DNA of 64,000 nt, taken from positions 5,404 through 69,403 of the IMG/VR virus record IMGVR_UViG_3300001199_000001; one strand, written 5' to 3'. The notes beneath the pieces are model-generated. The model had not been told where the DNA came from. It saw only the letters and a list, made by a program, of their open reading frames with translations, and did no database searches. The position numbers were made by a program, and so were the translations under genes. Of this stretch, positions 7,867 through 62,727 are shown in pieces; within the stretch, counting starts at the first letter, position 1, and the number at the start of each line of letters is the position of its first letter. The stretch comes from a virus (Duplodnaviria > Heunggongvirae > Uroviricota > Caudoviricetes).

Positions 7867-8352
7867 ATGCTGATCCTCTACACCCTGGTCCGGACCGACA
7901 TGCCCTCCATGGGTTACGGCAAGGGCGCGGCCCAAGCCCAGCACGCCGCAACCGCCTTCTCTGAATTCGAAATGCTGCGCCCGCTGGAAGCTGATGGCGA
8001 GATCGACGCCGACGTAATGGAATGGCGCAAGTCCACCAACCAAGGCTTCGGCACCAAGCTGACCCTCGATTGCTCCGACAAAGAGACGATGATCAAGGTC
8101 GTCGCCGCCGCACGCAAGCTCGGCTTCCCGGCGCGTGTGGTCACCGACCCGACCTACCCCTACCTCGTATCCGACGAAATCGTCCCGCTGATCGATAAGG
8201 CCGTCCACACCGACGATCCGAAATCCATCGGCGGCGGGCAGTCGATCTGCTTCCGTGAAGAGAAGACCTGCGCCTACGTCTTCGGTCTGAAGGACGATGT
8301 CAGCATCCTGCTGTCGCGGTTCAAACTACTGCCGAATGAGCCTGTTGCATGA
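7867..8352 (+). CDS. PTH2-family peptidyl-tRNA hydrolase-like protein
   Basis: LVRTDMPSMGYGKGAAQAQHAA matches PTH2 VVRxDLxMxxGKxAAQxxHAA. Confidence 0.6.
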   Translation: MLILYTLVRTDMPSMGYGKGAAQAQHAATAFSEFEMLRPLEADGEIDADVMEWRKSTNQGFGTKLTLDCSDKETMIKVVAAARKLGFPARVVTDPTYPYLVSDEIVPLIDKAVHTDDPKSIGGGQSICFREEKTCAYVFGLKDDVSILLSRFKLLPNEPVA

Positions 8353-20149: not shown

Positions 20150-20533
20150 TTATCCCGATGTCAACACATTATCACGTCCCCGCATCAACCGCATGAGCAC
20201 CGCGCGCAGGGCTGATTGCTCGTAAGGCTTCTGAAGGAAGGGCAGGGTCTGATCCGGGACATTCTCCTTGTTATAACCGGTTGACAGCACAAAGGGGATT
20301 CCACGTCCTTGGAGTGCAGTAGCTACCGGGCAGCTATACACTCCGTTCAGGTTGAGGTCGAGAACCGCCATGTCTATCGACTCACTCTCGATGATCGCGA
20401 GAGCCTGCTCGACGCGTGCTGCGGGACCTATGACCTTGCAACCAAGGTCGGCTAACATGTCTTCCAGCACCCAGGAAACCATGAGTTCGTCCTCGACTAC
20501 GAGGACGCGGCGACCCAACAGCGGGCTAGTCAT
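20150..20533 (-). CDS. single-domain response regulator (CheY-like receiver, LovR-like)
   Basis: RVLVVEDELMV...VIGPA...IDMAVLDLNL...PFVLSTGY receiver motifs. Confidence 0.8.
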   Translation of the reverse strand: MTSPLLGRRVLVVEDELMVSWVLEDMLADLGCKVIGPAARVEQALAIIESESIDMAVLDLNLNGVYSCPVATALQGRGIPFVLSTGYNKENVPDQTLPFLQKPYEQSALRAVLMRLMRGRDNVLTSG

Positions 20534-21602
20534 TGGGGCTACGTCCATGACCCTTCGGAAGGGGCATAACGACTTCACACGAAACGCCGGATGGATCGTA
20601 ATCCAATCGGACTTCGCCGTTCAACTCTTGGGCAAGGCCGCGCTCGATAAGGCGAGAACCGAAGCCTTTGCGGGTGGGCTGCACGAGGCGCGGTCCGCCG
20701 CTTTCCTTCCACAGTAGTCGCATCCATTCGCCATCGGCTCGACATTCAACGCCCCAGGACATAGTAACCCGCCCGTCGTCTACCGAGAGTGCGCCATATT
20801 TTGCCGAGTTGGTGGCTAGCTCATGGAAAACCATGGCCAGAGACAAAGCCGCCTTAGGCCGCAAGCGGATATCGGCCTTGGCCTCTAAAGTGAAGCGTTC
20901 CTTTCGCTGATCGTGTAAGCCAAACGGTTCTAGGATAAGGTCGACCACGTTACGCAGCACCACACGGCCCCAACTCGCGCTGCCAAGCAGGCTATGGGTT
21001 TTCGACAACGCGAGGATGCGACCTTCAAACAGTGCAAGAACTTTGCCATCTACGATGCCCCGTAAAGTCTGCCTAGCTATCGCCAGCACGGTTGCGAGCG
21101 TGTTCTGGGTGCGATGGTCTAGTTCATTCAGAAGAAAGCGCAGACGATCTTGCTCCTTCTTGTGGCGCGTAGTGTCCACAAAGGAGGCGAAATGTTGAAC
21201 GACCTCCCCCACTTCGTTCTTGACAGGACTAATGAACACGGTGGCCCACAATACGCTGCCGTCCTTGCGACAATAGCGTATCTCCGTGTCGTGGCCTTCG
21301 CCGTCGTCACGCTCAAAATCGACTTTGATAGCCTCCAACATATCTGGTGCGCCCCCCGGCGCCATCAAGGAGTTAAAGGCCTGCCCAAGTACTTCGCCTC
21401 GACTGTATCCAGTGAGAGCCAAAAAGCTGTCATTAGCGAAAATGAGCGGGTTTCCCGCTGCCTTGGCGTCCGTGAACACCATAGCCATTCGAGTCTGCTC
21501 TGCGGCCACGACAAACGGTCCAAGCTCATCCTTGAACTCTTGAACAACGGCTTCTGCTTTGGCCTGCGCGTTGGCGGGCGTCTTGTGTTGTTCTTCATCC
21601 AT
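20526..21602 (-). CDS. LOV-type PAS domain / HWE (HisKA_2) histidine kinase, LovK-like, lacking the photoactive cysteine
   Basis: GNPLIFANDSFLALTGYSRGEVLGQAFNSLMAP (LOV core with GRNCRFLQG replaced), ...YCRKDGS..W; ELDHRTQNTLATVLAIARQT HWE H-box; C-terminal ATPase. Confidence 0.75.
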   Translation of the reverse strand: MDEEQHKTPANAQAKAEAVVQEFKDELGPFVVAAEQTRMAMVFTDAKAAGNPLIFANDSFLALTGYSRGEVLGQAFNSLMAPGGAPDMLEAIKVDFERDDGEGHDTEIRYCRKDGSVLWATVFISPVKNEVGEVVQHFASFVDTTRHKKEQDRLRFLLNELDHRTQNTLATVLAIARQTLRGIVDGKVLALFEGRILALSKTHSLLGSASWGRVVLRNVVDLILEPFGLHDQRKERFTLEAKADIRLRPKAALSLAMVFHELATNSAKYGALSVDDGRVTMSWGVECRADGEWMRLLWKESGGPRLVQPTRKGFGSRLIERGLAQELNGEVRLDYDPSGVSCEVVMPLPKGHGRSPND

Positions 21603-21659
21603 AAGAGCGGTCCTCTGCCGGAGTCCAGAGATACTTCTCAGTCTTCATAATGGGCGTAC

Positions 21660-22130
21660 TTAGGCACGCCGCTTGATCGCTGTTAGCGTCTCATCGTCCT
21701 CAACAACTGGACAACGCATGCCAAACGCATCCTTGAAACGTTTAACCACGACGGCGGGCAGTCGGACCTCCCCATCGCTAATGTGAACGGCGAGGCCGTG
21801 CAGACCGTCTTCCCATTTGCTATCAAGGAAGTTCCACAAACCGATCCGGCTGATCGTGATTTGTGGATTGATCAAGGGAGCATACTCCGCGAACCACAGT
21901 CGACCCGTTTTCGTAGAGTTCATCCACGCGTTACCGAACGGTGATAAGAACCGAACGCTGCCCTGAGCCTGAATTTGCTTGATGTATGTTTCCACCACCC
22001 CGGTAACTCCGGGTGCTTGTTGACGCGTCCCCGGATACCACGTCACGGACCAATCCGCCGGGGAAGCCAGGGAAGCAGCAGGTGCAAGCGCGGCTGCGCC
22101 GCCAAGGGCGAGAAGTTGTCTGCGGTCCAT
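21660..22130 (-). CDS. Tat-signal secreted protein (paralog A)
   Basis: MDRRQLLALGGAAALAPAASLA twin-arginine signal. Confidence 0.6.
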   Translation of the reverse strand: MDRRQLLALGGAAALAPAASLASPADWSVTWYPGTRQQAPGVTGVVETYIKQIQAQGSVRFLSPFGNAWMNSTKTGRLWFAEYAPLINPQITISRIGLWNFLDSKWEDGLHGLAVHISDGEVRLPAVVVKRFKDAFGMRCPVVEDDETLTAIKRRA

Positions 22131-22366
22131 TACCTTGTCCCTGCTTCCTCTAGCCCAGCTAGAATTTGTTCGTGGTTATCCAGAATGAACTGAATAAGCT
22201 CGCGCTGATGGGTATCGCAGCGTTCATTCAAACGCGCGAACTCCTTGATGCTCTTGGCGTCGTCGCTGTCGAGATCGAAGTTATCGACCTCATCCGATGC
22301 ATCAGCGGCAGCGTCGAGGACGTAGTAGTAGGTCGCGAGGGTGTGGAATTGATCTACGTCCATCAA
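22130..22366 (-). CDS. hypothetical acidic protein
   Basis: 78 aa ORF. Confidence 0.45.
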   Translation of the reverse strand: MMDVDQFHTLATYYYVLDAAADASDEVDNFDLDSDDAKSIKEFARLNERCDTHQRELIQFILDNHEQILAGLEEAGTR

Positions 22367-22836
22367 TCAATCTCCTCAAGCGCGCTAAACGGCTCTGTCG
22401 TCGCGCCGCCCTCAACATTGACCCACTCGCCGTTATCCAGCGACTCCCAGTCCCAGTCGTACCGTTCGCAAATGGCGCGCAGTTGCGGCTTACCGTAGTG
22501 ACTGTAGTCGTCAATTCGCAGCGCGCCCAGGAAGCCATCCTCGCCCGCGAGCCACAGCCACGCCCTCATATGGTCCAACGACCGCCCGGCGCTCAGCCCA
22601 CGGCAGTCGTTCGCCTTGCCCCAAGCGAAATCCATATATTCCTTCATCTCGTCAAGGACCGCCTCGCGATCTCGCGGCGAGATTTCCCAACCATCGCTCG
22701 TGGCTTCCGGCTTAAGGAATTGCTTGGCCTTATCGAACGGCAAACGGACGATCAGATCGCCGGTCTGTGTGCCGAAGAAGTCCGAACCGGATACCGCGTC
22801 GATGTGGGCGATGATTTCGTCGTCGGTGCGCATCAC
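22363..22836 (-). CDS. hypothetical protein
   Basis: 157 aa ORF. Confidence 0.55.
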   Translation of the reverse strand: MMRTDDEIIAHIDAVSGSDFFGTQTGDLIVRLPFDKAKQFLKPEATSDGWEISPRDREAVLDEMKEYMDFAWGKANDCRGLSAGRSLDHMRAWLWLAGEDGFLGALRIDDYSHYGKPQLRAICERYDWDWESLDNGEWVNVEGGATTEPFSALEEID

Positions 22837-23051
22837 TTAATATCTTCTCCAAGGCGTATCCGTGCACGTCTGCGTGCTTTCTCATAACCGCGTTCAGTCA
22901 TGCCTAGGCGAGCAGCTTGCTCCGCCCGCGTCCCAGGCCCGTTCATGGCGGCGATGATGGCGGCGTCATTCTTAGAAGCGCGGGACTTCTGTGCAACCCG
23001 CAAACGGGCGAGGCGGTACTTCTGAAACGGGGTTAAGGGCGGCTTGTTCAT
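22833..23051 (-). CDS. small HTH DNA-binding protein
   Basis: AEQAARLGMTERGYEKARRRA (sigma region 4-like HTH). Confidence 0.5.
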   Translation of the reverse strand: MNKPPLTPFQKYRLARLRVAQKSRASKNDAAIIAAMNGPGTRAEQAARLGMTERGYEKARRRARIRLGEDIK

Positions 23052-23060
23052 GCTGTCTTT

Positions 23061-23324
23061 CTAAGCATCGCTACTCACCGGGTCCTTCGCCAGCGCCAAC
23101 GCCTCTTGCAGCGTCTCGACGATCTCTTGAAGTTGTCCTCGCGAGAGCCACATCCAAGCTTTCTCATCCTTGCCTACAGCGAGGTAAACTGGACAGCTTC
23201 TAACCGCGCTGCCCCAGTCAGTCTCCTTCACCTTGACGCGAATAGGGTAGTAGCGCCCAACGGATTTATCCATCAGGATGGTCAGCGGTTTATCGTCATC
23301 GTTTCCTAGATTGCTACCACTCAC
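23061..23324 (-). CDS. hypothetical protein
   Basis: 87 aa ORF. Confidence 0.45.
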   Translation of the reverse strand: MSGSNLGNDDDKPLTILMDKSVGRYYPIRVKVKETDWGSAVRSCPVYLAVGKDEKAWMWLSRGQLQEIVETLQEALALAKDPVSSDA

Positions 23325-24670
23325 GCCGCCACCTCTTTCAGCAGCCCGCCTGTCTTACCCGCCAGATCGAAGTTATTCTCGATGAACTTGATCACCCTGA
23401 GCGCAGGCGTATCCCGCTTGAATACGATGTTCGGTCCGTGGTTATCCAGCATTACAGCTTTAACCCCCGGACGAACCTCAACGAGGTTTTGCGATGTGTT
23501 GGCTCCGCACTGATGCGAGCCACATTCGTTTTGCCACTGCGGCGCGACCTTGACCGGCTCGTGGTCTTCCCTGAACGGTAGATGGGCATGGACGATGCAG
23601 TCGTAGCCAGGATGCTCGCGGAACACCATTCGTTGGCTCTGGCCGCCGACTGATGGCTTGGCGCCGAACGCCACCACCTTATCGTCGCCTTCGTACTCGA
23701 CGCGCACAAGGCCGATTTCCGCTAGCTTGTTGAAGTCCTGTTTGCGTTTGGAAGTGAGGATCGTCTTGTCGTCGATCCGCACAGCAAAATGCCCGACCGT
23801 CGCGCCTCGGAAAGGCTTATAGGCGCCGCGCTCGATGAGGTAGTTGACGACTTCACGTAAATTGTCCGGGATCGCGGGATCATCCCATGCGACCGAGTCG
23901 CCGTGCTGGACTGTGGATCGCGTGAAGGTATTGGTTGATCTCGCCATCACCATCTTGACCAGACCCTTAAGCACCTCATCACGGTCCGTCGTTTCATGGT
24001 AGCGCGCCTCTTCCGGCGTCACGATCATGTTGTTTCGCGTCACCGTATCGTTGGCTAGGACGAGGTTCAGGCTGTCTCGCTTGAGCATATTCAGAGCGAT
24101 GGCGTACTGCTCGTCCGAAGTCGCCCCGGTCGTCGTCTTGAAACCGACCACGAAGATGTCCTTGCGGGTCTTGCGGATTTTACCGATCAGCTTGGTGGCT
24201 GGCGTGAGCACCATATCTTGCTGACCGGCTGAGGTCTTAAGACGTGGTTCATGCGAGCCTGAGGGCGTCGTGACGAAATCAGCATGCCACGTCGAACCAA
24301 GCTGCCCGTCTTCGAGGATCGATCCGTCGTAGTCGCACAGCGCCGCGTTCAGAACGATGACGCGGGTCTCGGGATCAGCGATCAGTTCGTCCAGCAGCGC
24401 GCTGACATCGTCGTTGGTGACGAGCTTGCTGAAATAGGGTTCAGCCATCTTAGTGAGATGAAGGTGCACCGTCTCCTTCATATCTTCAACAGCAACACAG
24501 GCTTCATAAAGGGACCTTATCTTGCCCCCGTTTGTAGCGAGGTCACGAACTGCCGCACCAAACAGTTCGGACAGTCTTCGCGCCGTCTTCCCGAACGCCG
24601 GAGCCGCAAGTGCGAGGTGATTGCGCACGTGGGAGAAAGTCCCGCCGCCGATGATGTGGATTTTCTTCAT
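23321..24670 (-). CDS. two-domain enzyme: N-terminal CoaB/DFP-like (phosphopantothenate-cysteine ligase fold) plus C-terminal class II aldolase/adducin-like domain
   Basis: KKIHIIGGGTFSHVRN...VLNAALCDY...IFVVGFKTTTG...LVLAND (DFP-like); GHFAVRIDD.TILTSKR...GAKPSVGGQS...HPGYDCIVHAHL (class II aldolase). Confidence 0.6.
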   Translation of the reverse strand: MKKIHIIGGGTFSHVRNHLALAAPAFGKTARRLSELFGAAVRDLATNGGKIRSLYEACVAVEDMKETVHLHLTKMAEPYFSKLVTNDDVSALLDELIADPETRVIVLNAALCDYDGSILEDGQLGSTWHADFVTTPSGSHEPRLKTSAGQQDMVLTPATKLIGKIRKTRKDIFVVGFKTTTGATSDEQYAIALNMLKRDSLNLVLANDTVTRNNMIVTPEEARYHETTDRDEVLKGLVKMVMARSTNTFTRSTVQHGDSVAWDDPAIPDNLREVVNYLIERGAYKPFRGATVGHFAVRIDDKTILTSKRKQDFNKLAEIGLVRVEYEGDDKVVAFGAKPSVGGQSQRMVFREHPGYDCIVHAHLPFREDHEPVKVAPQWQNECGSHQCGANTSQNLVEVRPGVKAVMLDNHGPNIVFKRDTPALRVIKFIENNFDLAGKTGGLLKEVAA

Positions 24671-25143
24671 GACCAGTTGATCTCAAAAGACAGTTTGAAG
24701 TTGCCTTGATCCTCAAGCGGAAAGCGAGGAGGCAAGATTTCGTAACTGATTTCTTCCCGGTGGCCCTCCGACGACAGAACAAGATATCGCCGCCGCATGA
24801 CCAGCGCCGCAGGCATAGACTCACGACCATCGACGATATGGATGCTTAGGCCTTCCTCAGGCAGGAAGGTTTTATCCGAAGCGTCCCAGACACCGATCTG
24901 GTTGACGTGGAACTCCGGGTTGGCGAGCTTCACCTGCCAGAGCATGAAGAGCCGGTCCGTCGTGACGGCGACCGCACTTTCGGCGCGGATGCGGGCTATA
25001 TAATCCCGCACCAGTTGCGCGTGTGGGTTTGCCTTCGCCGCGTCCGACCAGAATTCGTCCTGAGGCTCCGCCGCCAGCAAAACCGACGGCATTAGGGAGG
25101 CGGCCCCACCTAGGGCAAGGAGTTGTCGCCTATCCATCATCAT
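24667..25143 (-). CDS. Tat-signal secreted protein (paralog B)
   Basis: MMMDRRQLLALGGAASLMPSVLLA; homologous to 21660..22130 (QIG.W...D......GL.IH..DG). Confidence 0.6.
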   Translation of the reverse strand: MMMDRRQLLALGGAASLMPSVLLAAEPQDEFWSDAAKANPHAQLVRDYIARIRAESAVAVTTDRLFMLWQVKLANPEFHVNQIGVWDASDKTFLPEEGLSIHIVDGRESMPAALVMRRRYLVLSSEGHREEISYEILPPRFPLEDQGNFKLSFEINWS

Positions 25144-25348
25144 CCTCGCTAAACGTCCAGCCCATATGGTTCAAAATTTCTTCCGGCTTGATCGGACTAT
25201 CGACCGTGCCGACGCCGATGAGCATGAAGGTGAATCTCTTGTCCTTTTTATCGACCTTATACCGCAGCCGCGAGCCATTAGGCGTGACGCTCTCGAAAGC
25301 GGTCATCGTGTGGATTTGACCTAGCTCCAGCTTACCGAAATCGCTCAC
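25130..25348 (-). CDS. hypothetical protein
   Basis: 72 aa ORF. Confidence 0.45.
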   Translation of the reverse strand: MSDFGKLELGQIHTMTAFESVTPNGSRLRYKVDKKDKRFTFMLIGVGTVDSPIKPEEILNHMGWTFSEDDDG

Positions 25349-25365
25349 GCAGGCCCCCGTGGTTA

Positions 25366-25698
25366 TCAGTGCGTCGCGAACTTAACAGTCGCCGTGGCCA
25401 AAACATCCGAAAGGGTGTCAGCCATGGCGATCTTCCGCGACACGACATCGCGCAGAAAGTCCTCGTGTTCCGGTTGGCCCATCAGGGCGTCAGCCCCTTC
25501 TTCATAGGCCGCCGCGATTTCTCGCACCTCCTCGATAAGGACATATACCTCTTCAAGAATGGACGACGGAATGTAACCATGGGCGACGCATTGCTCGACC
25601 CGGCGCACCAGTTTGACGCCCTTCTCGGTATTCTTCTCCTGCCGGTGCGAGGCCGCCAGCAGATGTCTCATCACGTCTTGTTCAGTAGCGCCGATCAT
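25366..25698 (-). CDS. hypothetical protein
   Basis: AAGGAG RBS before internal ATG 25698. Confidence 0.5.
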   Translation of the reverse strand: MIGATEQDVMRHLLAASHRQEKNTEKGVKLVRRVEQCVAHGYIPSSILEEVYVLIEEVREIAAAYEEGADALMGQPEHEDFLRDVVSRKIAMADTLSDVLATATVKFATH

Positions 25699-26075: not shown

Positions 26076-26687
26076 TTATGCTCCCGCAAGGCGAGCGTAC
26101 AGATCGTCTCGTAATGTGGAATTGGACAGCTTGCGGCTGGAATAGCTGTCCGTCTCCGCGCGTGGCACCGCATAGAGGATATGCGGCTCTAGGAACTTTG
26201 GGATTTCGGGGGGCTCTGACATCGTCTCCGGCATCTCCGCTTCGGCCATAACGAAATTGATCGCTGCACCCGCCAGGAAGAAATCGATATCCCACCGCAC
26301 ACGTAAACCGCCCTTCACGGTCTGCACGTCAGTCAGGCGGTATTTAGCCAGCCGGTGTGTCGTGTGCGGCCATAAAAGGTTGTATTCATGCGCCGACAAA
26401 TCCTTCTCGATCTCAAAGAACATACCTTCCACCGGCAGCTTGTAGGTGAAGGTGAACTTGTGACCACGTGGGCTGAGCTTGCGGCGGATGCGCCCCTTGC
26501 CCGGCAGATAGCCCTGATCGATCATCTCTTCGCTGTAGTTCAGGCGTTTGCGTATGGGCTCGACGCTGTCGAGGCGCAAAACGTATTTGAGTTCGTTCTC
26601 GATCAAATCAGCACCGCCAGAAGATAGACAAAAGCTACAACAGGCCAGAACAAGGCGTTCGTCAGCGCCGTATACAGCGCCCGCCAT
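26076..26687 (-). CDS. CYTH-like (triphosphate tunnel metalloenzyme) domain protein; start uncertain
   Basis: LIENELKYVL resembles CYTH N-terminal EIERKFLV; repeated E.E/K.K motifs. Confidence 0.4.
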   Translation of the reverse strand: MAGAVYGADERLVLACCSFCLSSGGADLIENELKYVLRLDSVEPIRKRLNYSEEMIDQGYLPGKGRIRRKLSPRGHKFTFTYKLPVEGMFFEIEKDLSAHEYNLLWPHTTHRLAKYRLTDVQTVKGGLRVRWDIDFFLAGAAINFVMAEAEMPETMSEPPEIPKFLEPHILYAVPRAETDSYSSRKLSNSTLRDDLYARLAGA

Positions 26688-26803
26688 GGTTTCGTGTCAT
26701 CGTGGGCCATGTCAGCGATAAACGACCAGACGAAAACGAGCGCCGATATGCTGAAATAGGCCAGCACTCCCGTGCGCAGCCAATCGATGTCGTGCAAGTT
26801 CAT
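26603..26803 (-). CDS. small membrane protein
   Basis: MNLHDIDWLRTGVLAYFSISALVFVWSFIA... Confidence 0.45.
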   Translation of the reverse strand: MNLHDIDWLRTGVLAYFSISALVFVWSFIADMAHDDTKPWRALYTALTNALFWPVVAFVYLLAVLI

Positions 26804-27108
26804 GGCGGCGCTCCTATCGTCAGCGCCACGGCGCCGTTGCCAAACAGTGATTCCTGACAGGCCCGACAAGCGTAGGTGATGCCCTCTATATAGGCGTGGG
26901 CTCCAAAAGCCGTGTGACCAGCAAGAGCGATGGCCATCGTCTCGGCATGCCCCGGCTGATCACATATCGTCCTGCATTTGATGTAACCCTCGCCCGGCAA
27001 ACGCGGACAAACCGCTTGCGGCTTGTTACAAGCGTTTTCCCCAACGACGCGCCGCCCGTCCGGGAAGACCAGGGTGCAGAGCACGACAGTTTTGGCGCAA
27101 GGCCCCAT
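26800..27108 (-). CDS. cytidine/deoxycytidylate deaminase-family zinc-binding protein
   Basis: GHAETMAI (HAE) and ACRACQESL (PCxxC) motifs; ATGA coupling. Confidence 0.6.
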   Translation of the reverse strand: MGPCAKTVVLCTLVFPDGRRVVGENACNKPQAVCPRLPGEGYIKCRTICDQPGHAETMAIALAGHTAFGAHAYIEGITYACRACQESLFGNGAVALTIGAPP

Positions 27109-27440
27109 CAGCGCATGCCTTGCGGCAGGTACTGCGCCATGAATTCGGTCTCCAGCGCCTTGCTGGGGAAGCTGAAAGTAGGCATCCGACTGATCGGGTC
27201 GACGTAATATTTCACCGTCGGATGCTGCTGCAACCACTCACGCACGCCCAGCAGCAAGACAGGCGGCACCCGACCGGCATGAGCAGGCTCGGTCAACCGC
27301 CAGTTCTTCCACATCGCGGTCGCTTCAAGTTGAAGATAGAAAATGCCCTCATGATTATATCGCCGCATGTCGGGTCTCTTCGGCCAGCGCGTCAAAAACA
27401 CAAAGGCCCGCCCCGAAGGGCGGGCCTCGATTAAGTTCAA
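27108..27440 (-). CDS. hypothetical protein
   Basis: 110 aa ORF; start possibly at 27365. Confidence 0.45.
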   Translation of the reverse strand: MNLIEARPSGRAFVFLTRWPKRPDMRRYNHEGIFYLQLEATAMWKNWRLTEPAHAGRVPPVLLLGVREWLQQHPTVKYYVDPISRMPTFSFPSKALETEFMAQYLPQGMR

Positions 27441-27450
27441 CCTTACTGTC

Positions 27451-28518
27451 TTACCTGACAGCAGTCAACACATTTGGGTTGGGCGCGGTGCGTCTCTGTG
27501 CGTTCGTGTAAGTGAACGGCGCTGTGACTTTTTGCGGATCGCGCGTGACGGGATAGCCCGTAATTTCGGTCGGCCATTGGGCAACCTTATATACCCGCAT
27601 CGAGCGGCGTGTACGACCCGCGACGAAGTCGTTCCAAGCCGTACTAATCAACCCGAACCAAGTGTCCACGTTGAGTGACGAACCGCGACGCAGATTGAGC
27701 GTAACATTGCGCAGCGCTAGGATCGGACTGCCCTTTTCGAGTTCCGCCCCCGACGAAAGCTTGGCAAGAAATTCCGACCACTTGTCGGCATACTCGCCGG
27801 ATGCTGTCGCCATCCAGCCGACCGCGCTGAGCGCCGACATCGAGACTGGCGGTCTGGCGGTATCGATTTTGGAGACGATCTGCTGGATTTCGGGGTGTTG
27901 GCGTACGAAATCGAGCATTTCGTTCTTACTGATCGTATTGTTCCGTGTAGGCAGCAACTGGTTCCACGTGATGATCAGGCGGACCGCAGCGGCGACCTTG
28001 GTCGCTTGGACGATGCCAGCGCCGCTGAGCGTGTCGGAGGCGCTGCGCTTGGCGCCTTGGTCCAGGGTGGAGAAAGTGTCTTCTTCGAGACCGCGAACGA
28101 CCATCATGCGAACCGGGGTCTTGGCGAGGAGGACGGCGGTGAGGCGGTGTTGACCGTTCAGGAGGCGACCGTTGCTAGCAAATTGAATGGGCTCGCCATT
28201 CATCTTCCACATGCCCATGCTCATTTGCCGGGCGAGAGATTCGACATGTTTGCGTCGAATAGGGCGGTTGCCCCAATTGGTGGTCGACAGATACTGATCG
28301 GCGACCTCCGGAGTGATAATTTCGTCCGACCACGAAAGGTGGGATGCGACGTGAACTGATTTGGACTTCGCAGCGGCCATGCCGTTACCTCCTGAGTTGA
28401 TGGTTTCTAACTCATAGTCGCCTTCGTTTCCCGTTGTCAACTCATTAGTGACAGCCTCGATGAACTGAGATTGGGGAGGCTTGGTCCGCCTCGAAAAGAT
28501 CAAATCCATTAGACTCAT
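27451..28518 (-). CDS. ParB-like nuclease domain (ParBc/DUF262-like) protein
   Basis: NGRLLNGQHRLTAV motif resembles DGQ(Q/H)R of ParB/DUF262. Confidence 0.5.
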   Translation of the reverse strand: MSLMDLIFSRRTKPPQSQFIEAVTNELTTGNEGDYELETINSGGNGMAAAKSKSVHVASHLSWSDEIITPEVADQYLSTTNWGNRPIRRKHVESLARQMSMGMWKMNGEPIQFASNGRLLNGQHRLTAVLLAKTPVRMMVVRGLEEDTFSTLDQGAKRSASDTLSGAGIVQATKVAAAVRLIITWNQLLPTRNNTISKNEMLDFVRQHPEIQQIVSKIDTARPPVSMSALSAVGWMATASGEYADKWSEFLAKLSSGAELEKGSPILALRNVTLNLRRGSSLNVDTWFGLISTAWNDFVAGRTRRSMRVYKVAQWPTEITGYPVTRDPQKVTAPFTYTNAQRRTAPNPNVLTAVR

Positions 28519-29630
28519 ACAACCACCCCTCCGTTGGCTGGGTTTTCCCGCACGACGCCGGTCCGTTCGTTGGGCGGGAAACAGAGAGAATAATGCAGAC
28601 CGGTGAAACGATATTCGAGGCGGGCGATGCCGTTGACCTCATTGGGTAGGCCCCTGGTCAAAAGACGCGTTCCGAAGGATGTTTTTTTAGGCCGTTCGAC
28701 ATACGGTCCGCCGCTCTCGTCCCAGCCCAGGCAAATCTCATTTTCACTGACGTGGACGCTGAGATTGACTGCGCCGTTGTATTCCGCGCTCCACGCCCCG
28801 TGCTTGGCGGCGTTAGTGGCCAATTCATGTAAGGCCATGCCAATCGACACCGCGTAATTCGGGTGAAGTTCGATATCCTTGCCGACCACCGTATAAACCT
28901 TGCCGTAAGGTGCGAGCAGGCGGTCGACCAACTCCCGGAAAAACACATGCGACCAGTGATGCTCGACTAGCAGATTATGGGTTTGCGAGAGCGCCATGAG
29001 ACGCTTCTCGAACGTCATCGCGAACTGCTCCTTCGACTCCGCCGCGCGCAAGGTCTGCTGGGCGATGGACTGCACCGACGCGAGTGTGTTCTTGACGCGG
29101 TGGTTCAGTTCGTCGATCAGCAGTTGCTGCCTACGATCATGCTCCTTCAGCGCAATCATCTCGTCCGATTTCTGCTGTAGCGCTAGGTAGGCGGCTTCCC
29201 GGTCACGCAACGCTTCGTCCTTCGCTCGAATCTGGTTTTCGAGCATTGAGGGAGAGGGTATCGCAAGCAGTTGCGGCGTCAAGGGCATCAACATTAATGC
29301 CGTAATCACTGACACTGAGGCGGTGACAGCCTTGAGCAAGGCCTCCACTCCGTAGTGTGGGTTCCACAGCGTCCAGATGGAAAAGAAGTGGGTCGTGCCG
29401 CAGAGCAGGATGAACGACACGAACAGCCAGCCCATCCACCCAAAGCTCAAACCCCTCCGCTTCAATAAGAAATAACCGATGGCGAACGGAATCGAATAAT
29501 ACGCCAGCCCGATAAGCACGTCGGAAGCGACATGGACAATGAGGATGTCAGGGCGCCATAATAAGCAGAGCCCGTGGGGATTTAGAAACTCGGAATCGAA
29601 GAAATATCGAATCCGTTCAATGATATTCAT
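28515..29630 (-). CDS. membrane-anchored HWE (HisKA_2) sensor histidine kinase
   Basis: N-terminal multi-TM domain; ELNHRVKNTLASVQSIAQQT H-box; C-terminal ATPase. Confidence 0.75.
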   Translation of the reverse strand: MNIIERIRYFFDSEFLNPHGLCLLWRPDILIVHVASDVLIGLAYYSIPFAIGYFLLKRRGLSFGWMGWLFVSFILLCGTTHFFSIWTLWNPHYGVEALLKAVTASVSVITALMLMPLTPQLLAIPSPSMLENQIRAKDEALRDREAAYLALQQKSDEMIALKEHDRRQQLLIDELNHRVKNTLASVQSIAQQTLRAAESKEQFAMTFEKRLMALSQTHNLLVEHHWSHVFFRELVDRLLAPYGKVYTVVGKDIELHPNYAVSIGMALHELATNAAKHGAWSAEYNGAVNLSVHVSENEICLGWDESGGPYVERPKKTSFGTRLLTRGLPNEVNGIARLEYRFTGLHYSLCFPPNERTGVVRENPANGGVVV

Positions 29631-31211: not shown

Positions 31212-32683
31212 TTATGCGTTCGCCCCGTTTCCGTTCGGCTTGCGCTTGGCCGGGACGACGGTCTCATTCGGGTGGAGCGTACCCACCGCCTTAGTGACGA
31301 TGGCCTGCCCCTCAGGTGTCTGTGCAAGGCCGGTTAGCATGGAGCCGATAGCCTGACCGCCCTTCGACGAGAACAGATCAGTGATCTTGCCGATGCCGGT
31401 CTGCACGTCGCCGCCGTTGACGATTACCTTCACGTCCGCCGCCTTGATGGCTTCGGCTTGCGCCACCCCGACGACTTGGTTGGCCTTCACCTGCTCGACA
31501 CTGACCAGATAGGTTTGATAGCCGGTGTTGCCGCCGATCTCACGGGCCAATTCCATCTGTGGCGCCACTTCAGCCAGTCCCTTGGCTTTCACGGCTTCAG
31601 CTTCGGCGAGGCCTCGCGCCTGAATGCCTTGAGCTTCCTTGATGGATTCTTCGAGGTTGCCTTCGGCGATCAAAATGGTCTGGTTTTTCTCGCCTTCGGC
31701 TTCGATTCGACGGCGTTCACGAACCGCTTCGGCGTCCACAACGGCGACATTCTTGTCCTGCTCGGCCTTAACCTCAGCCACCGCCTTGTCTTGCTGCGCC
31801 TTGATTTCAGCTACCTGCCGGTTGATCTCGGCGGCCCGTGTCATCTCGACCTGCTTGACCGCGTAATCTTTCTCGGCGGTGGTGCGGGATTCTTCGAGAA
31901 CCTGTTGCTCAGACCGCTGCTTCGCGATGCCGACGGCCTGCTCTTGCTGCGCGGTACGCTCGCCGACCTGTTGTGCGGCTTCCTGTCCAGCCAGATCGAT
32001 CTGACGGCGAGCTTCGATTTCACGCTCTTCGGCTTCGCGATGGTTTTCCGCAACAGCGACGCGGCTTTCCTTCTCGATGCGGGATTTCTCTTTGGCCATG
32101 ATGTTCTCAATGACCTTCGAGCCGTTTGAGTCACGGATGTCCATGAACTCGATGGTCTTGACCGTCTGAACGCCCCATTCCTTCAACTGTCCGTCGACTT
32201 CGGAAGTGAAACGCTCACCGAGCGACGAGCGGTCATGCATGATCGTCTCAAGCTGAGACTGTCCAAGCACGGTCCGGACGGCACCTTGCAGCACGGCGTG
32301 AAGCTGTTCAGTCAGTTCGGCGAAGTTGGCGACGCGGTGCGCGGCTACGTCCGAATCAGCGATCCGGAAGAAGGCCATGACATCGACGCGAAACGGCAGG
32401 CGTCCCTGGTCATAAGCTTCGTAATCCTTCAAGCCGACGTTGAAGACGCTCTCAGGAAGCTCGACCTGCGTGACGCCGAAGAACGGAACGAAACCGGGGA
32501 TTTCATAATAGACGTTCCCGGCTGTCCGGCCCTTGCCGTAGGAAGTCGTTGCTCGGCGTGATTGAACGATGTGCACCATATTGGTTGGTACGACCCGGCG
32601 CAGCACCATCATGATGATGGTTACGAGGACAACGAGGCCAAGCGCCACGCCTCCCCCGATCATTGCAATAATACTACCCATGA
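31212..32683 (-). CDS. SPFH/band-7 (flotillin-like, YqiK-type) protein with long coiled coil
   Basis: N-terminal TM, SPFH core, EA-rich coiled coil; GGAG RBS before ATG 32683. Confidence 0.7.
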
Positions 32684-32697
32684 CTCTGATGCTCCGG

Positions 32698-33252
32698 TTA
32701 TTTTCTGAGGTTTTTGGTGTCGACCTTGACCAAGGCGTCAAGGTGCTTATCGACAGAGGCGACGGCCTCATCACGAAGCTGCTCTTTCATCGCGCCGATG
32801 ATGTTGACGGCGTTCTGCTTGACGAGGTCGATAAAGGCCTCGCTGACGAACTTGCCGACCATCCATTCGGCGCGCGTCTTAGCGCCTTGTTTGTCGTAGT
32901 AGCCGCTGCTGGAAGAGAGTTCCTTGCCGCTCTTGTCGACAAGCTTAGACCAGAAGTCCTTCGATTTTTCGTTCAAGGTATCGCGGATGCTGATCGGCTG
33001 ACCGGCAGCTTGGCCATAAATATCGACAGGCTGGATCGGCTGCGTGAGCATAGACTCAAGCCGGTCATTGAGGAGGTCGTCGATCTTCGATGTGATCTTC
33101 GCGCCTATCGCCTCATCGACGCGTTTATCAATCAAACGACCAACGCGGTCGCCAACGTAGCCGGACGATGCGGCATCATCAGCTAGCTTCCGAGCGGCGC
33201 GCTCAAGGATTTGCTCGCGGATTTCTTCTTGGGAAAGGCCAAGGTCGATCAT
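32698..33252 (-). CDS. hypothetical protein
   Basis: 184 aa ORF. Confidence 0.55.
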   Translation of the reverse strand: MIDLGLSQEEIREQILERAARKLADDAASSGYVGDRVGRLIDKRVDEAIGAKITSKIDDLLNDRLESMLTQPIQPVDIYGQAAGQPISIRDTLNEKSKDFWSKLVDKSGKELSSSSGYYDKQGAKTRAEWMVGKFVSEAFIDLVKQNAVNIIGAMKEQLRDEAVASVDKHLDALVKVDTKNLRK

Positions 33253-34021: not shown

Positions 34022-34423
34022 TTAGGAGCGAAACGTCCCCAGGCCCATGCCCTTGGCGATCTCGCTACGGCGTTTCGCATAGTTAGGGGCGGTCATGGGA
34101 TAATCGGACGGGAGACCCCACTTACGGCGATAAGCTTCCGGCGACATGTCGTAACGCGCGCGGAGGTGACGCTTCAGCATTGTCAGCCGCTTGCCGTCCT
34201 CCAGGCAGACGATATAGTCAGGTTGAATCGACCGCCTGATCGAGACGGCGGGCTCTTTCTGTTCAACAGGCGCTTCATCAGGGGCGTCGAGGGTGGCCAT
34301 AGTGCGATGCACCGAGCGGATCAGTTCCGGTATAGTTTCCACGGGGACCTGATTATTCGCCACGTATGCCGCGACGATATCGGCGCTCATGTGGATAATG
34401 TCTTCACTGCTGTCCGTAGTCAT
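34022..34423 (-). CDS. Ros/MucR-family transcriptional regulator with degenerate zinc finger
   Basis: IVCLEDGKRLTMLKRHLRARYDMSPEAYRRKWGLPSDYPMTAPNYAKRRSEIAKGMGLG vs Ros CLECG..FK.LKRHL..H..TPEEYR.KW.LP.DYPMVAP.YA..RS.LAK.MGLG. Confidence 0.8.
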   Translation of the reverse strand: MTTDSSEDIIHMSADIVAAYVANNQVPVETIPELIRSVHRTMATLDAPDEAPVEQKEPAVSIRRSIQPDYIVCLEDGKRLTMLKRHLRARYDMSPEAYRRKWGLPSDYPMTAPNYAKRRSEIAKGMGLGTFRS

Positions 34424-34460: not shown

Positions 34461-34634
34461 TTAGTTTCCGTTGATTCCTCGCATGGTCGCAACCCATGCC
34501 TTATTCAGTTCGTCGATACTCTTCATGATGTCGTCGGCCGTGGGAAACGGACCGATATCATGGCCGATACAGGTGTCGCGATAATACCATCCCTTTTCGG
34601 TCTGCCAGTACTGCTGTCCACGATAATTATCCAT
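34461..34634 (-). CDS. hypothetical 57-aa protein
   Basis: MDNYRGQQYWQTEKGWYYRDTCIGHDIGPF...; C-terminal part of track ORF 34461..34913. Confidence 0.4.
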   Translation of the reverse strand: MDNYRGQQYWQTEKGWYYRDTCIGHDIGPFPTADDIMKSIDELNKAWVATMRGINGN

Positions 34635-35112
34635 TGGTGAGTCTCTTGAGGTATTCCCACGCTTGTTTCGTCCACCGCGCATCGTCGAGGGCATTATGGA
34701 CAGTGCCCTCGTGTTTTGGGAGCCGGAGCGCAGGATTGAGCATGTAGCGCCATTGCTGGATATCAAGACAGAACATCGGGAAGTGTTTCGGTGATTGCAC
34801 CATCGAGCCGAACAGCCAACAGAAAGCGACCCAATCATAGCTAGCGAAGTAGGCCCAGAACTCTGGATGCTTGTCGTCACCGATGAAATTGAGAACAGCA
34901 GGCCCGATCTCATGATAAGGCATGAGCACGTCGCCGCCGCTTAACAGTGGTTTGATGTTGGCTTGTATCCAGTGTTCCGCCGGGACTTCGCCCCAGACGA
35001 AATCGGCATTCTCAGCGTAGAATTCCCGCCCGTCCTCAGCGACGATCCCAAGCGAGATGAGGTGCAGTCGGCCGGGACGGTCCCAGAATTCCGTGTCGAT
35101 GAAGTATCTCAT
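34627..35112 (-). CDS. DEDDh 3'-5' exonuclease (DnaQ/oligoribonuclease-like)
   Basis: FIDTEF...LISLGIV; H.ALDDA motif. Confidence 0.7.
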   Translation of the reverse strand: MRYFIDTEFWDRPGRLHLISLGIVAEDGREFYAENADFVWGEVPAEHWIQANIKPLLSGGDVLMPYHEIGPAVLNFIGDDKHPEFWAYFASYDWVAFCWLFGSMVQSPKHFPMFCLDIQQWRYMLNPALRLPKHEGTVHNALDDARWTKQAWEYLKRLTNG

Positions 35113-48446: not shown

Positions 48447-50246
48447 ATGTCCGGACTCGCTCCGAACTCCTCGAATTATCAAAGAGTTTCACGCGCCGTC
48501 GATCAGGCCGTCCATCTGCTTGTCCACCCCGAATATGAGTACTGGCTTCCGGAATGGCGGAAGATCAGGGACGCTCTGCGTGGCCAAAAGGAGATCAAGC
48601 AGAAGTCCGAGAGCTACCTGAAGCGTATGAAGGGGATGGACGACGAGGACTACGAAATCTATCTCGACCGCGCCTTGTTCTACAACATGACCGCGCAGAC
48701 CCTGAACGGCATGATCGGTCAGGTTTTCCGGCGCGAGCCCATCGTCCGCAACCTGCCGGACAAATTTAAGAACGCTGTCCGTAAGTTCGCTAAAGACGGA
48801 ACCAGCCATATCGGGCTGGCCAAGACCAGCATGGGCGAACAGCTATCGCTGGCTCGTTTTGGCATTCTCGTCGATGCGGCGGCTTCCGTACAATTGGAAA
48901 GCCCGTCTTCGTACGCCGTCGGCTACCAGACAGAAGATATCCTTGATTGGACCGTTGAAGAGGTCGACGGATTTTATCGCCCGACACGCGTCCTGCTGCG
49001 GGAATATGTCCGCGACGACTCGTTGTCGGCGAGCAATGCGCCGAGCGATACGGTCTCCCGCCGTGGAGCCGGTCCCCGCGTCAATGTGTCTAAAGCACGG
49101 GCTGGCATGCAGCCGAAACGCTCGTACACGAACTTCCAATATAAGGTGATCTACCGGGAACTCCTGCTGATCCCGCATCCTCGTCACCCGCAATTCGAAC
49201 GTGTGTACGTCCAGCGTCTTTATGACACAGACCCGCAGTCAGCCCCATCGTCCGAAGTCGTTCCTGTCATTCGCGGCGTGCCGCTGCCGTTCATCCCCTT
49301 CCAGTTTTTCGGCTCGCGCACGAACACCGCTGATATTGAGCCGCCGCCGCTAAACGACATTGTCGATATTAACCTGTCGCACTACCGGACCTACGCTGAG
49401 CTTGAGTACGGTCGTACCTTCACGGCCTTGCCAGTCTATTATGCGCCGGGCGGTAACGACGAAGGGGCGTCCGCGTACCATATCGGCCCCAATATGGTTT
49501 GGGAGGTTCCGCCGGACGGGTCCGAGCCGGGCATCCTTGAATATAAAGGCGAAGGCCTGAAGGCGCTTGAAAAAGCGCTGGAACAAAAAGAACAGCAGAT
49601 CGCCTCCATCGGCGGTCGTCTGATGCCCGGTGCGTCGCGGTCGATCTCTGAGTCGAACAACCAGACTGCGCTACGTGAATCAAATGAACAGTCCTTGCTT
49701 CTCAACGCCATCCAGGCCTGTGAAGAGGGCTTTGCTGAAGTCATTCGCTGGTGGCTGATGTTCCGTGACGTGCCGCTGATCGAGACGCAGGGCCTCCGTT
49801 ACGAGTTCAACACCCAGTTCCTGTCTACGCCGATTGGCGCCCGCGAACTGCGCGCCATGCAGCTTATGTACAAAGAAGGCATCATCACTGACCAAATCTA
49901 CTACGAGTTCCTTAAGAAGGCCGAGGTCGTGCCGTCATCGTGGACCTTCGAAGAATACCAAAAGGCCCGCAAGGACCCGAACAGCTTCGTCAACAACCCC
50001 GACGCCCAAGCCCGTCAACGCGGTTATTCCGACCGCAAGCAGGAACTTGGCGTGGAGTCGACCGAGTTCGAGCAAGACATCCTCGACCGTGAGATCGAGA
50101 TCGAAGAAGAAAAGCTTGAAATTGCCGCCAAGGTTGGTTCGACCACCGTCGCAGCTTCCCGCAAGCTGGGCGATCCCGAGCAAGCTGAACCGGCGAAGGC
50201 TGATAAACTTTCTGCCAAGAAAGCCGCAGCAAAACCTAGCAAGTAG
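48447..50246 (+). CDS. putative portal protein
   Basis: 599 aa, first gene of late plus-strand block, followed by scaffold and capsid; no Walker A. Confidence 0.5.
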   Translation: MSGLAPNSSNYQRVSRAVDQAVHLLVHPEYEYWLPEWRKIRDALRGQKEIKQKSESYLKRMKGMDDEDYEIYLDRALFYNMTAQTLNGMIGQVFRREPIVRNLPDKFKNAVRKFAKDGTSHIGLAKTSMGEQLSLARFGILVDAAASVQLESPSSYAVGYQTEDILDWTVEEVDGFYRPTRVLLREYVRDDSLSASNAPSDTVSRRGAGPRVNVSKARAGMQPKRSYTNFQYKVIYRELLLIPHPRHPQFERVYVQRLYDTDPQSAPSSEVVPVIRGVPLPFIPFQFFGSRTNTADIEPPPLNDIVDINLSHYRTYAELEYGRTFTALPVYYAPGGNDEGASAYHIGPNMVWEVPPDGSEPGILEYKGEGLKALEKALEQKEQQIASIGGRLMPGASRSISESNNQTALRESNEQSLLLNAIQACEEGFAEVIRWWLMFRDVPLIETQGLRYEFNTQFLSTPIGARELRAMQLMYKEGIITDQIYYEFLKKAEVVPSSWTFEEYQKARKDPNSFVNNPDAQARQRGYSDRKQELGVESTEFEQDILDREIEIEEEKLEIAAKVGSTTVAASRKLGDPEQAEPAKADKLSAKKAAAKPSK

Positions 50247-61886: not shown

Positions 61887-61887
61887 A

Positions 61888-62724: not shown

Positions 62725-62727
62725 GTT

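Follow-up and report, generated by a model that had tools for sequence, protein, structure and literature searches.

A conserved fusion of CoaB-like and class II aldolase-like domains in jumbo phages and CPR bacteria

A co-directional gene run with two Tat-like paralogs

The window analyzed here, a whole stretch of 64 000 nucleotides of viral DNA, contains seven genes at positions 21660-25143 that all run in one direction, on the minus strand, with overlaps of 1-4 nt. One of them (23321..24670, with its stop codon at 23321-23323) encodes a 449-aa fusion enzyme with a CoaB-like N-domain and a class II aldolase-like C-domain. The start of the fusion gene shares 4 nt with the stop of a gene for a 158-aa protein with a Tat-like N-terminus (paralog A, 24667..25143; MMMDRRQLLALGGAASLMPSVLLA/AEP). 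Directly downstream of the fusion, with a 4-nt overlap, lies an 87-aa ORF (23061..23324), followed by a 72-aa ORF (22833..23051), a 157-aa protein of the phage family phrog_5706, whose function is unknown (22363..22836; E 7.9e-42), a 78-aa acidic ORF (22130..22366) and a second Tat-like protein of 156 aa (paralog B, 21660..22130; MDRRQLLALGGAAALAPAASLA/SP). The 87-, 72- and 78-aa ORFs have no family match. A sequence-only reading of this DNA had described a fusion enzyme flanked by two paralogs with twin-arginine signals, and we confirm both the arrangement and, by inspection, the twin-arginine-like N-termini.

Both paralogs carry the motif DRRQLLA, followed by stretches of 19 and 21 uncharged residues (mean Kyte-Doolittle 1.60 and 1.24) and A-x-A-like signal ends (LLA/AE and SLA/SP). 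They share with Tat signal peptides the Z-R-R-x-hydrophobic-hydrophobic motif, the mildly hydrophobic h-region and the A-x-A-like end, yet paralog B scores only 14.3 bits against the Pfam TAT_signal model (cutoff 22.7), paralog A has no match to it, and NCBIfam gives none for either. The paralogs have diverged at the DNA level, and the N-terminal peptide is conserved between them despite nine synonymous changes, indicating purifying selection. The public gene call for paralog B starts internally (112 aa, P0122); we favor the long ORF because its N-terminus is conserved between the paralogs. Homology searches with the pair returned only the phage itself, and paralog A weakly matches phrog_11563 (E 2.6e-4). 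For the mature domains we found no homologues and no recognizable fold, and the AlphaFold model (pLDDT 37) is unusable. The two form a duplicated pair private to this phage and are probably exported via Tat.

The region lacks the marks of a bounded unit. No direct or inverted repeats longer than 30 nt were found in 21500-25400, and none that pair both ends; there is no strong minus-strand terminator-like site inside the region, and the tight gene packing runs on upstream past its boundary. We found no near-identical DNA in cultured phages. A defense-system role was also considered and set aside, as none of the seven proteins has a match in PADLOC.

Two conserved domains in one protein

Domain searches recovered both domains that the sequence-only reading had named, CoaB/DFP and class II aldolase. 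The N-domain (aa 1 to ~250; 23921..24670, minus strand), with the motifs GGGT, AALCDY, RLKT, GFKTTT and LANDT, has the Rossmann-like fold of CoaB (DFP). It is 14-21% identical to CoaB/PPCS (Pfam DFP PF04127; monofunctional streptococcal CoaB, PDB 2gk4, TIGR02114/PRK06732), and its scores against the PPCS equivalog models are about one-eighth of the cutoffs (34.3 versus 265 for PRK06732, 26.1 versus 219.7 for TIGR00521 and 26.4 versus 217.2 for TIGR02114). The nucleotide-binding AAxxDY motif and the basic KxKK-type motif of CoaB are both matched: ALCD113Y aligns opposite AVSDY/AVADY, R143-L-K-T lies opposite K-I-S-S (2gk4) and K-M-K-K (5int), and GFK and ANDL/V also align. The position of the CoaB catalytic Lys is an invariant Arg in the fusion family. 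In CoaB, the (S/T)-N-H-S-(S/T)-G loop that follows the GGT strand contributes an Asn (N210 in Escherichia coli) that is required in the cysteine-transfer half-reaction. The HMM alignment places an invariant A-P-A-F-G in the fusion family opposite this loop (T-N-H-S-T-G in 2gk4), and due to this replacement the ligase step may differ from that of CoaB, or the domain may merely bind nucleotide. An R16-N17-H18 motif occurs about six residues before A-P-A-F-G and is a possible shifted structural counterpart.

The C-domain (aa ~255-449; 23324..23908, minus strand), with the motifs TxGHFA, TSxRK, KPSVGGQSQR, VHxH, ECGSHxCG and HGPN, has the class II aldolase/adducin fold and scores above the gathering threshold of Pfam PF00596, with the match limited to the N-terminal half of the model (17-93 of 183). 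At ~190 aa it is shorter than other class II aldolase/adducin proteins (FucA, AraD, MtnB, OtnC/YgbL and pyruvic oxime dioxygenase), and its best scores against the NCBIfam subfamilies (FucA, AraD, MtnB, OtnC) are 16-23 bits, where the cutoffs are 137-251, leaving it outside all four. The His triad of class II aldolases (HxH plus a later HG) is present, and all three His are at least 98% conserved. VH361-A-H363 lies opposite VHTH/VHNH of 2irp, AraD and FucA, while H411-G-P finds a counterpart in the HGP of AraD and YgbL only in HMMER segments that are weak and not significant. In contrast, the catalytic acid that follows P-S-(S/A) in the aldolases (Glu73 in FucA, Asp76 in AraD), which serves as base and metal ligand, is a Gly in KPSVGGQSQR: P-S-V-G342-G343, with both Gly invariant, lies opposite P-S-A-E (2irp) and P-S-S-D (AraD). 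This replacement makes the chemistry of the C-domain uncertain. Distant family members have P-S-V-G-E, with an acid one position later. The invariant ECGSHxCG insert is specific to the fusion family compared with other class II aldolases.

We assessed residue conservation among 146 distinct phage and cellular proteins, down to 46% identity. At least 98% of them keep G9 G10 T11, D113, R143, K160, R169 K170 D171, F177 K178 T180 and N207 D208 in the ligase domain, and H294, S307 R309, P339-R347, H361 H363, E382 C383 C388 and H411 G412 P413 N414 in the aldolase-like domain, a pattern that argues for two working catalytic sites. No structure in the BFVD viral library matched significantly.

The fusion begins straight at the beta1-GGGT loop with no signal peptide, and should act in the cytoplasm given this and the NTP requirement of the ligase fold. 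On the same two grounds it could not work in the periplasm next to the Tat-like proteins. We found no functional link between the pair and the enzyme.

Distribution and gene neighborhoods of the family

The same architecture, which the sequence-only reading had proposed to seek in other genomes, turned out to be widespread: one search gave more than 3339 matches, and the family counts 552 clusters at 50% identity, with 181 of the clusters at E<=1e-30. The fusion is not rare. With 46-71% identity, the fusion is found in jumbo phages, on the chromosomes of CPR bacteria, and in metagenome-assembled genomes (MAGs) labeled Bdellovibrionales or Micavibrio, although many of the non-CPR 'genome' matches come from MAG contigs and could be phage sequence binned wrongly. 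Cellular copies lie among housekeeping genes such as valS, tsaD, bipA, yceG and rlmH, on CPR contigs of up to 1.19 Mb, and viral copies are on contigs of 200-580 kb. All representatives whose sequences were read or scanned have either both domains or the N-domain alone. Longer relatives examined for added domains (P0216, P0217, P0199, P0177, P0218, P0136) have the same architecture with insertions, or are a frameshift chimera, and none brings in a further domain. The domain combination was not recognized in the sequence-only reading, and the databases offer just the generic names 'hypothetical' or 'class II aldolase/adducin family protein'; our full-text literature search found no paper on a CoaB-aldolase fusion. 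The fusion is a conserved, uncharacterized and unnamed family that has been strongly kept across phages and cells.

Stand-alone CoaB-like phage proteins (phrog_35624) match aa 1-244 of the fusion at 36-52% identity and have the same invariant residues, but do not have the aldolase-type domain, and their genomes contain no second match. They occur in the Caulobacter phages CcrBL9/CcrSC and the Pseudomonas phages phiPsa315/PPSC2/Astolliot, all annotated as hypothetical. A split-gene arrangement was considered for CcrBL9, where the gene after the N-only homologue does not encode an aldolase-type domain.

The gene neighborhood is not conserved with the enzyme. Using ten cassette and adjacent proteins as tblastn queries (1e-3) against 171 other loci with the fusion or N-domain-only relatives, we recovered only the fusion itself; none of the six neighbor genes recurs within 7-10 kb. 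The functional cassette proposed for this region finds no backing in these loci or in the repeat search, and the apparent cassette is a juxtaposition. The fusion family has other recurrent partners, namely a ~107-aa His-rich protein and, in CPR, a TrmB-family regulator, both of which are absent from the 64-kb window. The ~107-aa partner is always stand-alone and labeled 'hypothetical', with no match in Pfam and no sequence match in PDB.

Phage neighbors of the fusion are nucleotide-, NAD/ADP-ribose- and RNA-repair-type genes (CYTH, ADP-ribosylglycohydrolase, PARP-like, Macro, NUDIX, HD_4, DNMK, Nuc_deoxyri_tr2, Thg1, RNA ligase and PTH2). Each of these themes rests on 2-5 of 52 independent clades, and they may merely reflect the clustering of accessory genes in jumbo phages. 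The gene after the fusion encodes an M23 peptidase at nine MAG loci, alphaproteobacterial and other. In the relatives L085/L086, a small protein whose N-terminus is hydrophobic overlaps the fusion start; these proteins were considered as homologues of the Tat-like paralogs and show no similarity to them. Two candidates near the region in the window were also rejected: the ORF at 26800-27237 has dCMP-deaminase-like HAE...CxxC motifs with Pfam support absent, and p203 (26076-26687) matches CYTH at 8.8 bits against a custom HMM only, with no Pfam match.

Possible functions and relation to known enzymes

The explanation that we favor, with moderate confidence, is that the fusion is a cytoplasmic, catalytically competent two-domain enzyme acting as a salvage-type auxiliary metabolic gene product, with no cassette around it and no tie to the Tat-like pair. 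The N-domain would work in a CoaB-like manner, binding an NTP (CTP by analogy), turning a carboxylate of the substrate into an acyl-nucleotidylate and handing it to a nucleophile. The C-domain would hold a divalent metal on its His triad, next to a very basic phosphate-binding pocket, and there the same phosphorylated small molecule would undergo a coupled enolate-type step (decarboxylation, epimerization or an aldol-type reaction). The ligate-then-transform logic would be that of CoaB-CoaC with a different substrate. We found no substrate, product or partner chemistry for the fusion; since the family is common to jumbo phages, CPR and MAGs labeled as predatory, the expected substrate is a metabolite taken from the host, related to nucleotides or cofactors, which the enzyme would help to salvage or rebuild. 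More tentatively, the fusion and its ~107-aa His-rich partner might together catalyze an undescribed reaction by which host-dependent bacteria (CPR, predators) and huge phages restore an essential cofactor, using material of the host. Such a reaction could be an NTP-dependent ligation plus a metal-dependent decarboxylation or isomerization of a phosphorylated nucleotide-derived metabolite, or else a flavin-independent CoaBC-like route.

A narrower reading, which we consider rather unlikely, has the fusion process a metabolite derived from NAD+ or ADP-ribose, or another ribosyl-phosphate, with the aldolase-type domain acting on the ribose/ribulose-phosphate and the CoaB-type domain on the carboxylate/phosphate of the same molecule. 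Phages would use it to rebuild or destroy molecules against NAD-depleting or nucleotide-signaling defenses, while CPR and predators would use it for salvage. The phage neighborhoods point this way, with recurring ADP-ribosylglycohydrolase (12 loci in 4 clades) and PARP-like proteins (8 loci in 5 clades), Macro, NUDIX, CYTH and a faint NAD_synthase match nearby, and Nuc_deoxyri_tr2 directly downstream at L085/L086. DUF4326 is found five genes upstream at one locus (L169), and in Pseudomonas phage phiPsa315 it overlaps the N-only homologue; PMC9503650 proposes that this domain processes ribose-linked phosphates of ADPr. However, the association comes from few clades and from raw counts, CPR loci have no such neighbors, and PADLOC gave no match. 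Neither a CoaB/DFP nor an aldolase domain is mentioned in the survey of viral NAD-ADPr proteins (PMC9503650), and we found no plausible carboxylate substrate.

It is improbable that the fusion is a true coenzyme A pathway enzyme, in which a divergent phosphopantothenate-cysteine ligase is joined to a flavin-independent CoaC replacement as a compact CoaBC analogue. The equivalog scores are far under their cutoffs, and the NHS(S/T)G loop with its catalytic Asn is not kept. Decarboxylation of PPC requires thiol oxidation by flavin chemistry, to which the three-His metal site gives no evident route. In addition, CoaA/X, CoaD and CoaE are absent from the 25 families listed for 150 adjacent phage proteins and from the other scanned neighbors, and the N-only versions belong to phages of Caulobacter and Pseudomonas, hosts that make CoA.

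We give still less weight to a non-catalytic role for one or both domains, with the CoaB-type domain serving, for example, as a nucleotide sensor or the aldolase-type domain as a scaffold for oligomerization or ligand sensing, as in adducin, which would make the protein a regulator or binder. Although the protein has neither the Glu/Asp of class II aldolases nor the Asn loop of CoaB and N-only versions exist, the near-invariance of the His triad, basic pocket, ECGSHxCG and D113/R143/K178 over the 146 proteins fits catalysis better. Adducin-type domains have lost their metal ligands, whereas the fusion family keeps them. Hardly credible is a seven-gene cassette whose enzyme product is used by the Tat-exported proteins in the periplasm for the envelope remodeling or superinfection exclusion suggested in the sequence-only reading: the co-directional genes with short overlaps, the selection on the Tat-like peptide, the dissimilar small proteins at L085/L086 and the M23 peptidases would fit it, but the neighbors do not recur, the paralogs lack homologues, the region has no bounding repeats, flanking genes are packed just as tightly, most occurrences of the enzyme family are in CPR chromosomes and unrelated phage contexts, and nothing we found points to either role.

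If the fusion is a true bifunctional enzyme, as in our favored explanation, it would be one of few conserved unknowns common to CPR and jumbo phages, at ~50% identity. CPR bacteria and jumbo phages both rely on host metabolite pools. The identity of the substrate could reveal a missing CPR salvage step, and among phage auxiliary metabolic genes it could reveal a new class. To our knowledge, the CoaB fold has so far been tied to a single reaction, and the fusion would extend it to new chemistry. A close comparison is with bifunctional CoaBC (Dfp), which the fusion resembles in logic only, as a CoaB-type ligase joined to a second catalytic domain that possibly acts on the ligation product. In CoaBC the partner of the ligase is CoaC, an N-terminal flavoprotein decarboxylase, whereas the fusion has no flavoprotein domain and carries a metal-dependent domain of aldolase fold at the C-terminus, so that the domain order is opposite.

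Domain architecture and distribution of the fusion family

The 449-aa protein encoded at 23321-24670 (minus strand) combines a CoaB-like N-terminal domain of the DFP fold with a C-terminal domain of the class II aldolase fold. Pfam recovers both above their cutoffs, DFP at residues 135-214 (26.2 bits, cutoff 22) and Aldolase_II at residues 289-365 (35.5 bits, cutoff 22.2), as the sequence-only reading had expected. The AlphaFold model, obtained from 52 homologues, is confident (pLDDT 93.1, pTM 0.90). The analysis shows two conserved catalytic-looking domains within one rigid protein, which is placed in the cytoplasm because it lacks a signal peptide and a CoaB-type ligase requires NTP. In 146 distinct family members, the most distant at about 46% identity, key residues of both domains reach at least 98% conservation; we take this pattern to mean that both catalytic sites work, with a chemistry unlike that of the textbook enzymes.

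A search of a 90%-clustered database returned more than 3339 matches to the fusion; the best 120 of them are full length, share 57-70% identity, and are labelled only 'hypothetical' or 'class II aldolase/adducin family protein'. Clustering at 50% identity gives 552 family clusters, 181 of them with E <= 1e-30. In every representative whose sequence was read or scanned, either both domains are present or the N-domain stands alone; longer representatives show the same architecture plus insertions or are a frameshift chimera, and short matches to the C-domain only look like fragments. The domain combination had initially been described as unrecognised. Both folds are known and the architecture proved to be common, yet the family is uncharacterised and our literature search found no paper on it.

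The fusion is encoded at 162 loci in IMG/VR, many on contigs of 200-580 kb, and at 92 loci in GTDB genomes, where the copies share 46-61% identity with the window protein. CPR bacteria, which are tiny and host-dependent, account for about 35 of the 80 kept GTDB loci as counted from record labels. They include Saccharibacteria (with one complete 1.19-Mb chromosome), Paceibacterota, Nomurabacteria and others, and their fusion genes sit among housekeeping genes. The remaining carriers are metagenome-assembled genomes labelled Alphaproteobacteria, Micavibrio, Bdellovibrionales, Gammaproteobacteria and others. Among deposited phage records the full fusion occurs only in one uncultured 595-kb phage, and the N-domain alone is found in Caulobacter phages (CcrBL9, CcrSC and relatives) and Pseudomonas phages (phiPsa315, PPSC2 and Astolliot). 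The family is a well-defined, testable unknown common to jumbo phages and CPR bacteria.

Several fusion-bearing contigs measure about 540-580 kb and may be megaphage genomes sitting inside bacterial assemblies. One of them (581,572 bp; loci L020/L002) comes from the isolate assembly of Sphingomonas sp. 3-13AW, where DNA ligase, UvrD, RuvB and a homologue of a His-rich protein of about 107 aa are among the fusion neighbours.

Gene context in the window

The region at 21660-25143 contains seven co-directional minus-strand genes separated by 1-4 nt overlaps or short gaps. Paralog A (158 aa, 24667-25143, -) is the first and the fusion the second, followed by ORFs of 87, 72, 157 and 78 aa and finally by paralog B (156 aa, 21660-22130, -). 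The 157-aa protein (22363-22836, -) belongs to phrog_5706, a phage family of unknown function (E 8e-42), and is foreign to the usual neighbourhood of the fusion. The window is phage DNA, since it also encodes a portal protein (48447-50246, +; phrog_145, E 7e-109) and minor tail or tail-fibre-assembly-like proteins (60990-63606, +). An identical 449-aa protein is borne by a 278,859-bp metagenomic contig.

These seven genes had been proposed to form a functional cassette. The 171 other loci were compared over 7-10 kb around the fusion or its N-domain-only relatives, and neither the six remaining genes nor three more neighbours from upstream recur there. No DNA repeats bounding the region were found, and its tight gene packing continues into the flanking genes. 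These observations argue against a functional unit, and the 'cassette' is a juxtaposition. The region contains no strong minus-strand terminator-like site; the nearest, at 27403-27428 (-) after a 355-aa gene, is a strong hairpin with an 11-bp stem, nine GC pairs and a T-rich tail, and probably marks the start of a long minus-strand transcription unit containing the region.

The proteins at the two ends are, by sequence comparison, real paralogs, with 34% identity over 134 aa in BLASTP and 36% (E 6.8e-16) in tblastn with the low-complexity filter off. They share the N-terminus MDRRQLLALGGAA, 13 identical residues whose codons differ at 9 of 39 nucleotides, all synonymously, which indicates purifying selection and no recent copying. 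The public gene call for paralog B (P0122, 112 aa) begins at an internal start 44 codons later and drops the twin-arginine N-terminus; the 156-aa ORF is taken as the true one because this N-terminus is conserved with paralog A. Twin-arginine signals had been suggested for both proteins, and by inspection both N-termini fit one: each has DRRQLLA, then 19-21 uncharged, mildly hydrophobic residues and an A-x-A-like end, but the curated Pfam TAT_signal model scores one paralog at 14.3 bits (cutoff 22.7) and gives no score for the other. No homologues beyond this phage were found among 5.8 billion sequences searched, and the predicted structure has an unusably low pLDDT of 37. The pair is duplicated, private to this phage and probably exported.

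Two-component signalling proteins are encoded on the minus strand at two places. Paralog B is directly followed by a histidine kinase of the PAS + HWE type (20526-21602) and by a protein with a receiver domain (20150-20578), and a second HWE kinase with an ethylene-receptor-like ETR1_N sensor domain lies at 28515-29630. HWE kinases are typical of Alphaproteobacteria and therefore hint at an alphaproteobacterial host. Genes for ribosomal proteins L20 (17678-18034, -; E 9e-42) and L35 (18059-18256, -; E 1.3e-19) adjoin, as in the bacterial operon, which has the order infC-rpmI-rplT. Further cell-like genes are those for a Band_7/SPFH protein (31212-32774, -), a Ros/MucR-type regulator (~34022-34423, -) and an Rv2179c-like exoribonuclease (34627-35112, -), all mapped to the window from precomputed Pfam matches on the identical contig, and a stretch at 7873-8334 (+) similar to fusion-neighbour cluster v16, labelled PTH2 from gene tables and a scan of neighbours.

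Recurrent neighbours of the fusion

At other loci, the neighbour most robustly associated with the fusion is the His-rich protein of about 107 aa (motif KPSALEG..W..HN..GHP..Q...HD..TVP.P), encoded directly downstream at 54 of 154 loci and in 21 of 52 clades; examples among loci L085-L172 are L172:7001-7324 and L106:9973-10320. Reverse look-up from this protein placed the fusion within two genes in all three cases, counting one 438-aa protein with no recorded Pfam match that was taken to be the fusion. Neither Pfam nor PDB gives a match to the His-rich protein, which is absent from the window and is probably a functional partner of the fusion. A further recurrent neighbour, in CPR including Saccharibacteria, is a TrmB-family HTH regulator whose gene is divergent from the fusion gene and lies about 60-240 bp upstream of it (33 loci, nine clades; for example L070:7093-7863 and L058:7111-7866, both -), which suggests ligand-responsive control of the enzyme.

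Other phage neighbours comprise CYTH, ADP-ribosylglycohydrolase, PARP-like, Macro, NUDIX and HD_4 proteins, as well as dNMP kinase, Nuc_deoxyri_tr2, Thg1, RNA ligases and PTH2. Their themes are nucleotides, NAD/ADP-ribose and RNA repair, with each type coming from only 1-5 clades. In Pseudomonas phage phiPsa315, a DUF4326 gene and the start of the stand-alone CoaB-like gene overlap (L004:5693-6630), and a 1.33-Mb contig has a DUF4326 gene five genes upstream of its fusion (L169:305-697); one proposed function of DUF4326 is the processing of ribose-linked phosphates in ADP-ribose derivatives. CYTH-domain proteins often come after the fusion in other phages. In the window, a 203-aa ORF (26076-26687, -), some 0.9 kb upstream from paralog A, shows a hint of weak resemblance to them: its custom-HMM score is 8.8 bits, and it has no Pfam match.

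Possible activity and relationship to known enzymes

We propose that the N-domain would activate a substrate carboxylate as an acyl-nucleotidylate, in the manner of CoaB. The C-domain would subject the same small phosphorylated molecule to an enolate-type step, using a metal bound by its three histidines and a phosphate pocket of strongly basic character (H294, S307, R309, K338, R347). The host dependence of the carriers, together with the phage neighbours, suggests a substrate derived from a nucleotide or cofactor and a role in salvage. We give this general model slightly better than even chances. A role specific to NAD/ADP-ribose, one of the neighbour themes, is unlikely. That the protein is a divergent CoaB joined to a flavin-independent replacement for CoaC is very doubtful: the Asn loop is missing, the chemistry counts against it, and no other CoA genes appear among the neighbours scanned. 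With both sites conserved as they are, a non-catalytic binder is highly improbable. The envelope-modification cassette of the sequence-only reading is scarcely credible and is not what the region represents.

By its sequence features, the protein does not belong to the characterised CoaB or class II aldolase families. The N-domain profile and 2gk4 align almost end to end (E 8.8e-15). Against the NCBIfam PPCS (phosphopantothenate-cysteine ligase) equivalogs the domain scores 26-34 bits, with cutoffs of 217-265. The GGT strand, the AxxxDY motif (D113), GFK and ANDx are kept as in CoaB, and the basic motif R143-L-K-T stands opposite K-I-S-S of 2gk4 and K-M-K-K of 5int. The CoaB loop T-N-H-S-T-G bears the Asn required for the cysteine-transfer step; in the profile alignment, the fusion has an invariant A-P-A-F-G opposite it. 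The C-domain keeps the HxH pair of class II aldolases. AraD and YgbL have an HGP histidine to which H411-G-P can be aligned, but the only segments that do so are weak and not significant. Where FucA has Glu73 and AraD has Asp76, the fusion has Gly, inside an invariant KPSVGGQSQR motif, and an ECGSHxCG segment is invariant and specific to the fusion family.
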